Source of the DNA: an uncultured Bacilli bacterium
GTDB taxonomy: Bacteria; Bacillota_I; Bacilli_A; RF39; UBA660
Length of the DNA stretch: 63,612 nucleotides
Reading direction: 5' to 3'
Assembly (NCBI GenBank): GCA_944358815.1
Contig: CALVRX010000022.1
Coordinates: forward strand, 1 to 63,612
Part shown: positions 2,944-62,029 of the stretch, piece by piece
Numbering within the stretch: the stretch's first letter is position 1
Layout: each line of letters begins with the position of its first letter
Translations under genes and position numbers: made by a program
Notes under the pieces: model-generated
What the model saw: only the letters and a program-made list of their open reading frames with translations
What the model was told of the DNA's origin: nothing
Database searches by the model: none

Positions 2944-4137
2944 ATGAATAGGGATGATTTTAATATTTTAAAGTCCGGAGTTATTTATTTTGATAATGGG
3001 GCAACTACTTTAAAACCGAAAGTTTTAGGAGAAGCCGTAGCTGATTATTATGATAATTACAGTTCTAATATTCACCGTGGTGATTATACTTTAAGTTCGA
3101 AAGCTGAACAAAAGTATGAAGAGACAAGATATTTGGTAAAGGATTTAATTGGTGCTAAAAAAGCTAATGAAATTGCTTTTACAAGTGGAACAACAGATTC
3201 TATTAATAAAATTGTTTTTGGTTATTTTAGAGATCATTTGACAGAAGGTGATGAGGTATTACTAACTAAAAGTGAACATGCTTCAAATTTACTTCCATGG
3301 TTTGAACTTGCAGATGAGAAGAAACTTAAAATTAGTTATATTGAACTAGATGATAATCATGAAGTTTTGATAGAAAATGTAGAAAAGGCAATAACTTTAA
3401 AGACTAAGGTAATATCTATTGCTCATGTTAGTAATGTAGTTGGTGATATTAGACCAATTAAGGAAATTGTTAAATTAGCTCATAGTAAAGGAATACTTGT
3501 TTTGGTAGATGGGGCACAAAGTGTTCCACATTTAAAAATTGATGTACAAGATTTGGATATAGATTTTTTGGCTTTTTCAGCTCATAAAATGTGTGGACCG
3601 ACTGGGGTTGGAGTTTTATATGGAAAAGAAAAGCTATTAGAAGAAATTAAGCCAATTATTTTTGGTGGAGATATGAATGCTGATTTTAATCATAATGGTG
3701 AACGTATTTATAAGTCGATGCCTTATCTTTTAGAAGCAGGAACTCCTAATATTGCTGGAGTAATTGGTTTTGGATATACTATTAAGTATTTGATGAATAT
3801 TGGACTAGAGAAAATTCATGATTATGAGTTAGAATTAAAAAAATATTTGGTTAAAAGATTAAAAGAAATTAAGGAAATTACTATTTATAATGAAAATAGT
3901 AAGAGTGGTATTGTAACGATAAATTATGAGGGAATTTTTCCACAAGATTTGTCTATTTATTTGGACAAGTATAATATTTGTACTAGAGCTGGTAATCATT
4001 GTGCGAAGATTTTAAAAGATGAAATTCATATTAAAAATACTTGTAGAATAAGTTTATATTTTTATAATTCTAAAGAAGAAATTGATAGATTAATAGAGGT
4101 ACTTAAAAATCCAAACATTAAGAGAGAAATTATATAG
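2944..4137 (+). CDS. sufS: Cysteine desulfurase SufS (class V aminotransferase)
   Basis: PLP-lysine motif SAHKMCGPTGVG and active-site loop RAGNHCA. Confidence 0.9.
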   Translation: MNRDDFNILKSGVIYFDNGATTLKPKVLGEAVADYYDNYSSNIHRGDYTLSSKAEQKYEETRYLVKDLIGAKKANEIAFTSGTTDSINKIVFGYFRDHLTEGDEVLLTKSEHASNLLPWFELADEKKLKISYIELDDNHEVLIENVEKAITLKTKVISIAHVSNVVGDIRPIKEIVKLAHSKGILVLVDGAQSVPHLKIDVQDLDIDFLAFSAHKMCGPTGVGVLYGKEKLLEEIKPIIFGGDMNADFNHNGERIYKSMPYLLEAGTPNIAGVIGFGYTIKYLMNIGLEKIHDYELELKKYLVKRLKEIKEITIYNENSKSGIVTINYEGIFPQDLSIYLDKYNICTRAGNHCAKILKDEIHIKNTCRISLYFYNSKEEIDRLIEVLKNPNIKREII

Positions 4138-58510: not shown

Positions 58511-59583
58511 ATGAAAAAATTAGGTTTTGGATGTATGCGATTTCCAGTAGATGAAAATGGAAATATTAATATAGAAGAACTTAAAAAGATGGTAGATGTG
58601 TTTATTCAAAAAGGTTTTACTTATTTTGATACTAGTTATGTTTATCATAATGGGGAAAGTGAAAAGGCTTTAGGTAAGGTATTAGTAGATAGATATCCTA
58701 GAGACAAGTTTACGATTACGACAAAGTTACCTTCATTTATGGTGAATACGAAAGCGGAAATGCAGAAAATATTTGATGAACAACTTACTCGTTTAGGAAC
58801 GAATTATGTCGATTATTACTGGCTTCACGCCCTTACTGATGAGTTATATGAGAAAATGGGGGAGACGGGGTTTGCTTTTTTAAGAGAGTTAAAGAATAAT
58901 GGAAAGATAAAACATATTGGTTTTTTTTTTCACGATTCTCCAGAAGTTTTAGAGAAGATTTTAAATGCTCACCCAGAAGTAGAGTTTGTTCAGCTACAGC
59001 TTAATTATATTGATTGGACTAGTCATTTTGTGAGGTCTAAAGAATGTTATGATGTTTGTTTAAAACATAATGTTCAAGTGATTGTTATGGAACCAGTTAA
59101 AGGTGGGGGACTTGTAAATCTGTCAGCAAAGGCTGAAGAGATTTTTAAAGAATATGATGGTAAAGCATCTAATGCTTCATGGGCGATTAGATGGTGCGCT
59201 TCACTTTCTAATGTTTATATGGTTTTATCAGGCAGTTAAATCAGGTTTTAGATAATACATCATTTATGGAAGATTTTAAACCGATGAATGATGAAGAAAA
59301 AATGCTTGTTAAAAAAGTAGCAGATATTATTAATAGTAAGGTTTATTTTGATGAGAAAAAATTAGAAAATATTAATTTAGATGATAAAGTTAAAGATGCC
59401 GTTAAAGATTATGTTAGACTTTATAATGAACACTATAAAATGGACTGTTATACTAATGGAATGGTTTATTATGCGAATTTGATTAAAAAATATCCTAAAG
59501 CAAGTGAGTGCATTAAGTACTGTGATAAATATCCCGAGATTAAAGATGTTTTAAGTAAGCTAGCTGAGGCTTTTGAAAATTAA
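58511..59583 (+). pseudogene. Aldo/keto reductase (MKKLGFGCMR type) disrupted by a frameshift near 59231-59237
   Basis: ORF 58511-59239 ends ..VLSGS*. A second frame, open from 59212, reads ..QLNQVLDNTSFMEDFKPMNDEE, the expected continuation of this AKR family. Also contains a T10 run at 58921-58930. Confidence 0.65.
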
Positions 59584-59610
59584 ATTGTCATAAATTAATG
59601 ACAATTTTTT
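59582..59610 (+). terminator. Intrinsic terminator
   Basis: AAATTGTCAT-aaatta-ATGACAATTT hairpin followed by TTT. Confidence 0.8.
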
Positions 59611-59682
59611 GCTAGTTTTGTTTATTTTTTTGACTTAAAGTGAGTGTATAGATGATAAAATAGTAATGGAGGATTGATTGAT

Positions 59683-60198
59683 ATGTTGTTTGAAAAAGAT
59701 TATAAAGGTAAAAAAAGTTTAATTATTTATTTTAGTAGAGCAGATGAAAATTATGGAGTTGGCTTTATTAGTAAAGGTAATACGGAAGTTATTGCAGAAG
59801 ATATTAAGGAGTTCACAGGGGCGGATATATTTAAAGTGGAGCCAGCTATACCTTATGCGAGTGATTATAATACTTGCATTAATGAAGCTAGGGAAAGACA
59901 AGTTAGTCATAATGCTCCTATTAAAGAAAAGGTTCCAGATATTTCTAGTTATGAGGTTATTTATATTGGAAGTCCTGTTTACTGTGGTGATATGCCAGAA
60001 GAGTTAGTTACAGCTTTGAAAGATATTAATTTTACTGGTAAGATTATTAGACCTTTTGTTACTCATGAGGGCTCTGGACTTGCAAATATACCAAGTCAGA
60101 TTAAAGCGGTTTGCAAGGGAGCAGAAGTAACTGATGGACTTGCTATTAAAGGATCTTTAGTAAATAGTTCTAAAGATAAAGTAGAGAAATGGATTTAG
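59683..60198 (+). CDS. Flavodoxin family protein
   Basis: KKSLIIYFSRADENYG..GNTEVIAEDI..GSPVY pattern of the Flavodoxin_4-type family. GGAGGA SD. Confidence 0.75.
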   Translation: MLFEKDYKGKKSLIIYFSRADENYGVGFISKGNTEVIAEDIKEFTGADIFKVEPAIPYASDYNTCINEARERQVSHNAPIKEKVPDISSYEVIYIGSPVYCGDMPEELVTALKDINFTGKIIRPFVTHEGSGLANIPSQIKAVCKGAEVTDGLAIKGSLVNSSKDKVEKWI

Positions 60199-60209
60199 TA
60201 TAAAAAAAC

Positions 60210-60240
60210 CAATAAAGATAATTCTTTATTGATTTTTATT
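60210..60240 (+). terminator. Intrinsic terminator after the flavodoxin gene
   Basis: CAATAAAG-ataatt-CTTTATTG hairpin followed by aTTTTTaTT. Confidence 0.7.
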
Positions 60241-60248
60241 ACAAAATA

Positions 60249-60277
60249 TTGCGTTTTATATAACTATTCGTTATATT
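60249..60277 (+). promoter_or_regulatory. Candidate promoter of toxin-like mRNA 1
   Basis: TTGCGT, 17 nt, TATATT. The predicted TSS (about 60285) lies just before the conserved AAGGAATGTTCAAT 5' box. Confidence 0.55.
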
Positions 60278-60343
60278 TATATATAAGGAATGTTCAATAG
60301 TTGGACGCTACCAATTCGATACAAAGAATTGGAGGTGATGCTT

Positions 60344-60421
60344 ATGACTCAAAGAGAAAAAGCTCTTTACTTCATAATCTCACTTCTATTTATTATAGTA
60401 TTCATTTTGCTTTTTAAATAG
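60344..60421 (+). CDS. 25-aa hydrophobic peptide, candidate type I toxin (MTQREKALYFIISLLFIIVFILLFK)
   Basis: GGAGG SD 8 nt upstream of the ATG. The peptide has a polar head, a single hydrophobic helix and a terminal Lys. It sits in a duplicated unit with a convergent antisense promoter. Too short for the ORF track. Confidence 0.6.
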   Translation: MTQREKALYFIISLLFIIVFILLFK

Positions 60422-60534
60422 AAAACAGCGTCTAACTCATCATCGATGATTTAGACGCTCCACAAGTTAATCGGTAGCGTTCAACAATCGAGAATTGAAC
60501 GTTCCTTTTTTATTTTATGAGATTTCTCTCATCT
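60418..60534 (-). ncRNA. Candidate cis-antisense RNA 1 (antitoxin-like), about 115 nt, complementary to the 3' UTR and stop codon of ORF 1
   Basis: Bounded by the minus-strand promoter (60541-60569) and a minus-strand terminator (AGCGTCTAA..TTAGACGCT, 60427-60459, then gUUUUcUaUUU). Ends are predicted, not measured. Confidence 0.55.
60478..60511 (+). terminator. Intrinsic terminator of toxin-like mRNA 1
   Basis: CGTTCAA-caatcgagaa-TTGAACG hairpin followed by ttccTTTTTT. Confidence 0.75.
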
Positions 60535-60540
60535 ATATAC

Positions 60541-60569
60541 ATTCTATCATATATTTAACTTTAAGGCAA
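60541..60569 (-). promoter_or_regulatory. Near-consensus promoter of antisense RNA 1
   Basis: On the minus strand: TTGCCT, 17 nt, TAGAAT with a TGa extended -10. Confidence 0.7.
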
Positions 60570-60576
60570 AGATTTT

Positions 60577-60606
60577 ATTACATTTTCTATAACTATTCGT
60601 TATACT
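60577..60606 (+). promoter_or_regulatory. Candidate promoter of toxin-like mRNA 2
   Basis: -10 TATACT in the same conserved block as unit 1. The -35 is weak (ATTACA at 18 nt, or TTACAT at 17 nt). Confidence 0.45.
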
Positions 60607-60671
60607 TATGTATAAGGAATGTTCAATAGTTGGGTGATTGCCGAGCTTCTATTTAGAAGGGAGGCGGTATA

Positions 60672-60755
60672 ATGAGTAAGAAGGATTGTTTAATCTTATC
60701 TTTAATCGTTATTATCTTCTTTCTGTTATTGTTATTATTTATAATTTTAATATAA
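60672..60755 (+). CDS. 27-aa hydrophobic peptide, candidate type I toxin (MSKKDCLILSLIVIIFFLLLLLFIILI)
   Basis: GGGAGG SD 7 nt upstream of the ATG. Same architecture and position as ORF 1 in the second repeat unit. Confidence 0.6.
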   Translation: MSKKDCLILSLIVIIFFLLLLLFIILI

Positions 60756-60865
60756 AAAAAAATTACCTAACTCATCTACAATGATTTAGGTGCACCACAC
60801 AAATTGGTCGCATTCAACATTGGCAATTGAATGTTCCTTTTTATTTTATGAGAAATTTCTCATCT
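60752..60865 (-). ncRNA. Candidate cis-antisense RNA 2 (antitoxin-like), about 115 nt
   Basis: Minus-strand promoter at 60872-60900. Minus-strand terminator ACCTAA..TTAGGT (60765-60791) followed by aaUUUUUUUUU. Complementary to the ORF 2 3' UTR and stop codon. Confidence 0.55.
60811..60846 (+). terminator. Intrinsic terminator of toxin-like mRNA 2
   Basis: CATTCAA-cattggcaa-TTGAATG hairpin followed by ttccTTTTTaTTTT. The stem differs from unit 1 by a compensatory G-C to A-U change. Confidence 0.75.
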
Positions 60866-60871
60866 ATATAC

Positions 60872-60900
60872 ATTTTAACATATTTTTAACTTTAAGACAA
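60872..60900 (-). promoter_or_regulatory. Near-consensus promoter of antisense RNA 2
   Basis: On the minus strand: TTGTCT, 17 nt, TAAAAT with a TGt extended -10. Confidence 0.7.
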
Positions 60901-60922
60901 TTCTTTGTTTTATACTTTGTAA

Positions 60923-61147
60923 CTATTTTTTGAAGAGTTTTTTAGGTTTATTTAGATCTGTTTCTGTAATAACATGTTTATCATCAATTGGTATACCATC
61001 TATTATAGCTCTATAGTCAGGTTTTAACTTTTTCTTAATTTTGCTTTCGATTATTTCAGTAATAACTTCAGGCTCTAATTCAATGAATTTTTCGTATGGT
61101 ATTCCAAATTTTTCTTCTATAGATTGTTTTAATGTTTCTAAAGACAT
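60923..61147 (-). CDS. Hypothetical small protein (74 aa, acidic N-terminus / basic C-terminus)
   Basis: AAGGAAAGAAAG SD-like stretch upstream. No motif recognised. Confidence 0.45.
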   Translation of the reverse strand: MSLETLKQSIEEKFGIPYEKFIELEPEVITEIIESKIKKKLKPDYRAIIDGIPIDDKHVITETDLNKPKKLFKK

Positions 61148-61287
61148 AAACTTTCTTTCCTTTCTTGGTTATTATAACATGGATAACTTGAATTGTGAAT
61201 ATTTTAAAATTAAAATATTAATATTTTATAGGTAATTTGATGGTTAAATGATATAATGAATTTGAAAAGGCAATTTGGAGGTTTTAG

Positions 61288-61476
61288 ATGAAAAAATTAA
61301 AATTTGGTGTATCTTTAGTTGTTTTAGGTAATATTTTATATTTAGCTTATATTTTTTTGGCAGGTGATGGTAGTTCATTTGGAGAGTTTACTTCTGGTTT
61401 ATTACTTGGACTTTCTATTGGCATTAGTTTGGTAGGTATTATTATGCTTATTATTTATGCTTCTAAAGAAAGATAA
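61288..61476 (+). CDS. Small two-TM membrane protein (62 aa)
   Basis: GGAGG SD and two hydrophobic helices. Confidence 0.5.
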   Translation: MKKLKFGVSLVVLGNILYLAYIFLAGDGSSFGEFTSGLLLGLSIGISLVGIIMLIIYASKER

Positions 61477-61492
61477 TTAAAAGGTGGTTAGT

Positions 61493-62029
61493 ATGAGTGA
61501 TATAGAAATTATAAAACTTACTTTTGGAATATTTTTAAGTGTGTTTGGATTAGTACTTATCTTTTTAGCTTTTTTGCTATTTTATAAATATTTAGTGCAG
61601 GAAAAAAGATGTATTTCTAAAGTAAAAGGAATTATTAAAAGGTATAGTATTGCAGAATATGGTGGTGTGCATTTACCTATTGTCTATTATATGGTAGATG
61701 GTAAAGAATATAAGGTTAAAGGCCCAGAATATAAATGGATTATTACTAAAACAAAAAGTAGTCCTACTAGTAAAAATAAAGTAGATTATGAAGTTGATGG
61801 TCAAAGTTTAATTATCAACTGCGAGGTTAATTCTATTGTTTCAGTTTATAAAAATCCGCTTTATGATATGTATCCACTTAATTCAGAGATTGATGTTTTC
61901 TATGATCCAAATAATCCAAAACTAGCTTATGTTTTAAGATACTGTGATAAAAAGTTTTGTTTTTGGCTTATGTTTATTTCTGGTATTGTTATATTAATTA
62001 TAGATATTCTTATTTTAATTTGTTTATAG
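61493..62029 (+). CDS. DUF3592 family membrane protein
   Basis: TM, then a beta-rich core (..VHLPIVYYMVDGKEYKV....IDVFYDPNNPKLAYV), then a TM. This layout is typical of DUF3592. Confidence 0.65.
   Translation: MSDIEIIKLTFGIFLSVFGLVLIFLAFLLFYKYLVQEKRCISKVKGIIKRYSIAEYGGVHLPIVYYMVDGKEYKVKGPEYKWIITKTKSSPTSKNKVDYEVDGQSLIINCEVNSIVSVYKNPLYDMYPLNSEIDVFYDPNNPKLAYVLRYCDKKFCFWLMFISGIVILIIDILILICL

Follow-up and report, generated by a model that had tools for sequence, protein, structure and literature searches.

Two tandem units and their relatives

The window analysed here, a stretch of 63,612 nt from an uncultured Bacilli bacterium, holds between positions 60240 and 60900 two tandem units of ~333 nt each, which share 79% column identity. 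The parts of each unit follow one another in the same order: a promoter on the + strand, a leader, a GGAGG SD sequence, a tiny ORF, a first hairpin (hairpin 1), a second hairpin followed by a T-run (hairpin 2), a third small hairpin and, as the last part, an extended −10 promoter on the − strand that is directed back into the unit.

How widespread is this arrangement? Of 400 genomes from the same family that were searched by BLAST, 278 gave a match at E ≤0.01, all of them genomes of ~1 Mb, and a motif scan of public genomes contributed more than 120 further loci. The carriers of the latter are gut MAGs of uncultured Bacilli or "Tenericutes", among them Ca. Coprosoma, Ca. Faecisoma, Ca. Ventrenecus, Firmicutes bacterium CAG:822 and Mycoplasma sp. 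CAG:611. From a profile search over all fetched loci we obtained 176 full-length units, and removal of those at ≥90% identity left the family set of 147 units. An exact-pattern scan of 400 genomes of the class found the pattern in 2 of 49 genomes of the window's family and in none of ~350 from other families, the pattern being too strict to gauge the range of the module. Tandem arrays of 2–4 units occur in 25 of 150 loci, with a spacing of 318–396 nt. Loci L021, L035, L090 and others are arrays of three or four units at this same spacing, in which peptide types are mixed. The window's own genome has a third, divergent unit on another contig (locus L004, contig C2, ~3400–3750, − strand), whose 30-aa peptide is of a different type (MKTKAFIIKILKLIAIILFFIIIMIIVIKK) on an unchanged RNA scaffold.

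The + strand promoter lies at 60249–60277 in unit 1 (TTGCGT, 17 nt, TATATT), with a predicted start near 60284–60286, and at 60577–60606 in unit 2 (TTACAT, 17 nt, TATACT). At the matching place, 116 of the 147 relatives reach at least 9 of 12 promoter matches, as compared to 29 in shuffles, with TGnTATAAT as the consensus. The two promoters of the window (CGTTATATT and CGTTATACT, 8–9 of 12 matches) are below this family consensus, having CG instead of TG, and TATATT or TATACT.

The ORF of unit 1 (60344–60421, + strand) encodes 25 aa (MTQREKALYFIISLLFIIVFILLFK) and that of unit 2 (60672–60755, + strand) 27 aa (MSKKDCLILSLIVIIFFLLLLLFIILI); both peptides are hydrophobic and single-TM-like, and each ORF has its own SD. 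ORFs of 18–44 aa occupy the corresponding place in 135 of the 147 units. At least four peptide types can be told apart among them, and in all of these a charged N-terminus precedes a hydrophobic span, which is usually followed by a basic C-terminus. In the two commonest types, variation at codon position 2 is about half that at positions 1 and 3, and synonymous changes make up ~50% of the single-base codon differences. Because of this coding-type substitution pattern in the family, selection seems to act on the tiny ORF as a coding sequence. Reading frames of 25–30 aa do not exceed the minimum length usually reported by gene callers, so that such loci look like empty gaps in annotations.

The module family is without a match in curated RNA or protein families (Rfam, Pfam, NCBIfam). 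Against Rfam, cmscan of positions 59000–62000 at E values up to 10 gave two chance-level matches (SNORD50 and tsr24), far below their gathering scores. For six representative peptides, Pfam and NCBIfam returned nothing near the cut-off, the best match being HokA (E 0.27, 11 bits against a cut-off of 89), and there was no match of these six to TxpA/BsrG, Fst, Hok, Ldr, Ibs, TisB and other curated type I toxin profiles. Likewise, phage and plasmid collections held no match to the module.

Covarying helices of the mRNA

The first-pass annotation had described three helices that keep their position while changing sequence between the two units, and every base and coordinate it quoted is exact. In hairpin 1 (60427–60459 in unit 1, 60765–60791 in unit 2), the pairs G60430-C60456 and T60431-A60455 of unit 1 are replaced by A60765-T60791 and C60766-G60790 in unit 2. 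In hairpin 2, the terminator of the mRNA on the + strand, G60479-C60500 becomes A60812-T60832; here, unit 1 has its stem at 60476–84/60495–503 and its T-run at 60506–60516 (together 60476–60516), and unit 2 has a stem at 60810–17/60827–34 followed by a T-run (together 60810–60847). That annotation had also cautioned that two sequences make for weak statistics and had called for a larger alignment. We share the caveat, and the alignment that we made displays clear covariation. Its view that RNA structure, and not sequence, is under selection holds for all three helices across the 147 relatives, by alignment counts for hairpins 1 and 2 and by tests of cognate arms for all three.

For the alignment, the 3′ regions of 43 mutually diverse units were aligned by MAFFT, which is blind to structure. 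On it, RNAalifold predicted exactly hairpins 1 and 2 unaided, with double changes in 15 out of 15 predicted pairs. When the 3′ helices of unit 1 were laid on the alignment, 84.9% of the cells were paired, compared to 32–42% with the partners slid by 1–3 columns, and changes on both sides were found in 21 of the 24 pairs of the 3′ hairpins. Double-change cells numbered 168 as against 63 in shuffles, counts that exceed the number of independent events since the sequences of the family are kin, and none of 500 shuffles reached the observed covariation score. At the level of comparative sequence analysis, the many distinct stem sequences show that compensation was repeated many times.

The position of hairpin 1 is occupied by a hairpin of at least 6 bp in all 147 units (mean 11.9 bp), with 69 distinct outer-arm sequences. 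An alignment-free test, in which the arms of a helix were paired with cognate or with non-cognate partners, led to the same picture for all three hairpins of the 3′ region: −15.3 vs −7.6 kcal/mol for hairpin 1 (z −31), −9.9 vs −6.1 kcal/mol for hairpin 2 (z −20) and −5.2 vs −3.4 kcal/mol for the third hairpin (z −15). Of four control segment pairs not expected to form helices, two had a z of ~0 and two weakly preferred their cognate partner (z −5.3 and −3.1), with differences below 0.7 kcal/mol.

The third helix of the earlier description lies in the leader. In unit 1 it is the stem CCAATTC/GAATTGG (60311–17/60326–32), part of a hairpin (60311–60335, + strand) that overlaps the SD GGAGG at 60331–60335, and in unit 2 it is CTTCT/AGAAG (60646–50/60655–59). 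Both stems had been given exactly, but the coverage of the SD in unit 2 (60660–60664) was understated: there, an outer helix (60638–42/60662–66) covers the 3′ part of the SD, and the whole structure spans 60638–60666 on the + strand. Leader hairpins cannot be aligned by column, and each local leader was therefore folded separately. In 128 of 131 units, two or more of the five SD bases fell in the 3′ arm of the leader hairpin, and in 96 of 131 this arm took up four or all five. Cognate arms paired at −8.06 kcal/mol and non-cognate arms at −6.53 kcal/mol (z −9.8); with the last three SD bases left out, the values were −4.88 and −3.61 kcal/mol (z −9.4). Given that SD bases are paired family-wide and that cognate arms are preferred, the leader helix is, according to these folding models, an anti-SD structure with covariation in its variable part.

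The arms of the terminator have a further partner. Both arms of hairpin 2 also pair with the 26 nt at the start of the mRNA: in the 5′ leader of unit 1 (60287–60312, + strand), segment A (60287–60298) pairs with 60494–60505 and segment B (60300–60312) with 60473–60485, and the leader of unit 2 (60616–60642, + strand) is composed of segment A (60616–60627) and segment B (60629–60636), then GCC. The minimum-free-energy fold of the full-length unit 1 mRNA has a z of −9.2. In a whole-mRNA MAFFT alignment of the 43 units, long-range helices A and B were paired in 92.8% and 90.2% of cells, compared to 34–40% when slid, and double changes affected 22 of the 25 long-range pairs. Cognate arms again surpassed non-cognate ones (−15.2 vs −8.2 kcal/mol, z −24, and −19.5 vs −10.6 kcal/mol, z −26), and in partition-function calculations the pairing probability between leader and 3′ region was above 0.5 in 121 of 130 units. 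Wobble pairs in the long-range helix are unevenly distributed: read on the + strand, G.U combinations number 105 and A.C combinations 24, an excess that argues for pairing at the level of RNA and against an inverted repeat acting as DNA.

This additional pairing changes how the terminator substitution is to be read. G60479 can pair with C60500 or with C60306 of the leader, and all three equivalents in unit 2 are changed, to A, T and T. Since the long-range helix is better kept than the terminator hairpin (92.8% and 90.2% vs 84.7% paired) and the two have arms in common, the change of G60479-C60500 is part of a three-way covariation that includes leader C60306, which became T. The covariation reported for the terminator stem is borne out; its label was incomplete, as both arms also pair with the 5′ end of the mRNA.

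A predicted convergent antisense RNA

Which strand do the 3′ hairpins serve? Hairpin 1 had been annotated as a hairpin of the 3′ UTR. No T-run comes after it on the + strand (mean of 2.5 T in 10 positions), and a run of A residues comes before it (mean 7.5 of 10; 133 of 147 units have at least 7). On the − strand, this run corresponds to a U-run after the hairpin. Hairpin 2, on the other hand, is followed on the + strand by a T-run (7.3 of 10). Folded as − strand RNA, hairpin 1 is 0.91 kcal/mol more stable (better in 90 of 147 units; G.U pairs 88 on the − strand vs 40 on the + strand), hairpin 2 is 3.35 kcal/mol more stable (120 of 147; 271 vs 99) and the third hairpin 1.81 kcal/mol more stable (138 of 147; 25 vs 3). 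As the U-run exists on the − strand only and the − strand fold is the better one, we read hairpin 1 as being most likely the intrinsic terminator of a convergent antisense RNA, a refinement of the earlier label that leaves its covariation untouched. On that strand, hairpin 1 is followed by TGTTTTCTATTT in unit 1 (60427–60459) and by AATTTTTTTTT in unit 2 (60765–60791). A scan with a consensus terminator model missed both terminators of the window because their loops are 9–10 nt long.

The candidate promoters of the antisense RNAs are located on the − strand at 60541–60569 (TTGCCT, 17 nt, TGaTAGAAT) for antisense RNA 1 and at 60872–60900 (TTGTCT, 17 nt, TGtTAAAAT) for antisense RNA 2. In 142 of 143 units of the family, the − strand promoter has a constant offset from an invariant block. 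TG is found at −15/−14 in 125 of 143 units, and 128 of 143 match the consensus at 9 or more of its 12 positions, compared to 23 in shuffles. What is conserved are the positions TTG, 17 nt, TGnTAnnAT; the non-determinant positions drift freely.

With RNA ends predicted from promoters and terminators, antisense RNA 1 would be ~120 nt long (~60414–60536, − strand), contain three hairpins (fold z −4.1) and overlap the 3′ end and the stop codon of the mRNA. Its 5′ hairpin, the covarying helix ATGAGA/TCTCAT, lies at 60517–60532 on the − strand, and hairpin 2, besides being the partner of the mRNA 5′ leader, doubles as its middle hairpin. Antisense RNA 2 would extend over ~60749–60867 on the − strand and likewise fold into three hairpins (fold z −3.3), with its 5′ hairpin at 60848–60863; in both RNAs the last of the three is a terminator. 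Judged from these signals, each unit probably encodes a convergent antisense RNA with its own promoter and terminator that overlaps the mRNA.

Two side observations concern the start of this RNA. Between the antisense −10 box and the antisense 5′ hairpin, the block CATCTATATACAT (60530–60542 and 60861–60873) is nearly invariant across genera; its 85–100% identity in other-genus matches is far above what a discriminator or start region usually needs. Furthermore, the antisense 5′ hairpin (60516–60536, − strand) reads as a 5-codon mini-ORF, ATG AGA GAA ATC TCA TAA, with the family consensus ATG AAG GAA ACT TCA TAA and a start 1–3 nt past the predicted transcription start. This − strand mini-ORF may be a mere consequence of the ATGA/TCAT palindrome.

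Comparison with type I toxin-antitoxin loci and other readings

What could such a locus be for? In our view, the region 60240–60900 probably consists of two tandem type I toxin-antitoxin-like modules that follow a bsrG/SR4-like logic. Each copy would give rise to a + strand mRNA of ~225 nt encoding a hydrophobic peptide of 25–27 aa, the putative toxin, and to a convergent − strand antisense RNA of ~120 nt that is driven by its own extended −10 promoter and overlaps the last ~95 nt of the mRNA. In the nascent mRNA, the SD would be shut by the anti-SD hairpin, and hairpin 2 would end transcription. After release, the leader could invade hairpin 2, resulting in the more stable 5′–3′ helix in which both mRNA ends would be buried. 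Two C residues at the 3′ end of segment B would be common to this long-range helix and the anti-SD stem, and antisense RNA sitting on the 3′ region would free the leader, lengthen the anti-SD helix and further close translation. The complement of helix 1 would form a stem-loop in the mRNA 3′ UTR, with its loop as a likely first contact point, and the duplex of mRNA and antisense RNA would also be a substrate for RNase III.

In modelled folds, the mean energy cost of opening the SD rose by 2.0 kcal/mol once the 3′ region was blocked (up in 101 of 130 units, down in 10; p 5e-18), with a rise from 4.3 to 8.6 kcal/mol in unit 1 and from 3.9 to 6.0 kcal/mol in unit 2. Family-wide, the probability of the SD being unpaired did not differ significantly between the two states (0.159 vs 0.140, p 0.07), so that the case for the switch is made by the opening energies and by thermodynamic modelling. 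From these models we infer that binding of the antisense RNA may close the SD further.

A more speculative extension, which we offer tentatively and consider somewhat doubtful, would cast the leader as a mimic, in cis, of the antitoxin. In sense, segments A and B agree with the middle hairpin of the predicted antisense RNA, and their sequence is nearly that of this hairpin with the loop removed. If the leader acts in this manner, the long-range fold would be the translatable, nuclease-protected state of the mRNA, and the antisense RNA would reset it to the closed one. The terminator arms would then pair in turn with each other (termination), with the leader (release) and with the antisense RNA, in mutually exclusive ways: a three-state toggle on the terminator, kept by three-way covariation.

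By analogy of architecture, the closest described system is bsrG/SR4 of Bacillus subtilis. In bsrG mRNA, nt 1–35 pair with nt 232–262 in helix P1, and the SD is held in a 4-bp stem; binding of SR4 at the 3′ end lengthens this stem to 8 bp and also promotes decay (PMC3834814). Common to both systems are an mRNA for a small hydrophobic peptide, a convergent antisense RNA over the mRNA 3′ end (predicted here) made of modular stem-loops that end in a terminator, a long helix between the 5′ end and the 3′ part of the mRNA (P1 in bsrG), and a short stem that contains the SD and is lengthened by antisense binding (shown in bsrG, predicted here). In the present modules, this combination of a 5′–3′ helix, an SD in a short stem and an antisense RNA to the 3′ region emerged from prediction and covariation, and the effect of binding on the SD was modelled. 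There are differences as well. The peptides, of 25–30 aa here, have no sequence similarity to those of bsrG/SR4, and the antisense RNA is predicted to measure ~120 nt, compared to 183 nt for SR4. Moreover, P1 of bsrG lies upstream of the terminator SL4, whereas here the leader pairs with the terminator arms themselves, which makes terminator and long-range helix mutually exclusive.

In hok/Sok of plasmid R1 and aapA1/IsoA1 of Helicobacter pylori, the toxin mRNA is reported to combine a long-distance 5′–3′ fold with a local anti-SD stem (PMC5416894, PMC6733600). The likeness lies in the 5′–3′ interaction of the full-length mRNA and in the sequestration of the SD by a local anti-SD stem. In those systems, the antisense RNAs target the 5′ or translation-initiation region and 3′ processing activates the mRNA, whereas the antisense RNA predicted here has its complementarity to the 3′ partner of the long-range helix. 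Targeting of the 5′ region, of the hok/Sok or aapA1/IsoA1 kind, was not found here, in that the antisense promoter follows the ORF and the RNA predicted from it extends back only as far as the stop codon. In the models, moreover, the long-range fold slightly opens the SD and does not lock it.

The par locus (fst/RNA II) of Enterococcus faecalis pAD1 combines a convergent toxin mRNA and antitoxin RNA in a low-GC Gram-positive organism, with a 5′ structure that limits translation, and direct repeats at the 5′ ends of both RNAs provide complementarity at the translation start. Convergent transcription of toxin mRNA and antitoxin RNA and a translation-limiting 5′ structure are thus features that par would share with the modules described here. 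In contrast to par, there was no match to the Fst family, and leader and antisense RNA agree in sense instead of being complementary.

Does the peptide have to be a toxin? We infer its toxicity, no toxin family is matched, and small membrane proteins under antisense control exist. The product might instead be a small membrane peptide that does no harm, such as a regulator or an accessory subunit, whose level is tuned by RNA structures and an antisense RNA, with the helices being real and the TA pair not. We consider this rather unlikely, for the set of features matches that of type I loci: the units are multi-copy and tandem (2–4 units in 25 of 150 loci, and a third copy in the genome), the peptides have diversified fast into several types on a kept RNA scaffold, the SD is constitutively sequestered in the predicted folds, and the 5′–3′ helix goes together with a 3′-overlapping antisense RNA as in bsrG/SR4.

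Two other readings would dispense with the antisense RNA or with RNA structure altogether. Transcription of the − strand is deduced from its signals, and the block CATCTATATACAT is far more conserved than promoters usually require; the 3′ hairpins might hence be stability elements of the mRNA plus its terminator, and the downstream block something else, such as a protein-binding site. This is very improbable, given that the conserved − strand positions coincide exactly with the promoter determinants while the rest drift, that helix 1 has a U-run on the − strand only and that all three hairpins fold better on this strand. Still harder to believe is that the repeats act as DNA, be it as recombination sites or as the terminal inverted repeats that bound a miniature mobile element. 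An imperfect inverted repeat of ~26 bp, formed by segments A and B with the terminator region, does flank the tiny ORF, and the units are multi-copy and tandem. Pairing at the DNA level, however, would be unbiased with respect to strand, whereas the wobble pairs favour the + strand in the long-range helix (105 vs 24) and the reverse in the 3′ hairpins, and on this ground we rejected the reading as a DNA repeat or mobile element. Promoters, SD, ORF and T-runs at constant positions, and the lack of a match in phage or plasmid collections, likewise speak against it.

Read as type I toxin-antitoxin-like modules, the units described here would add a large family without a curated match in uncultured gut Bacilli with small genomes. 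To our knowledge, these bacteria cannot be grown and very few RNA regulators are known from them. The diversity of the family allows covariation alone to define the whole RNA architecture, with five helices, two of them mutually exclusive, and makes it a good natural data set for fold switching in toxin mRNAs as well as a ready seed alignment for an Rfam-type model.

Two further observations relate to the promoters of the window. Unlike the + strand promoters, its antisense promoters retain the TG extension, and weaker + strand promoters in combination with TG-extended antisense promoters would favour the putative antitoxin RNA. Lastly, a palindrome, ATAAC-TATTC-GTTAT, occupies the spacer of the + strand promoter in both window units (60257–60273 and 60586–60602). 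A repressor of the peptide mRNA could have its operator here; many relatives have CAAATGTTTG in place of the palindrome.
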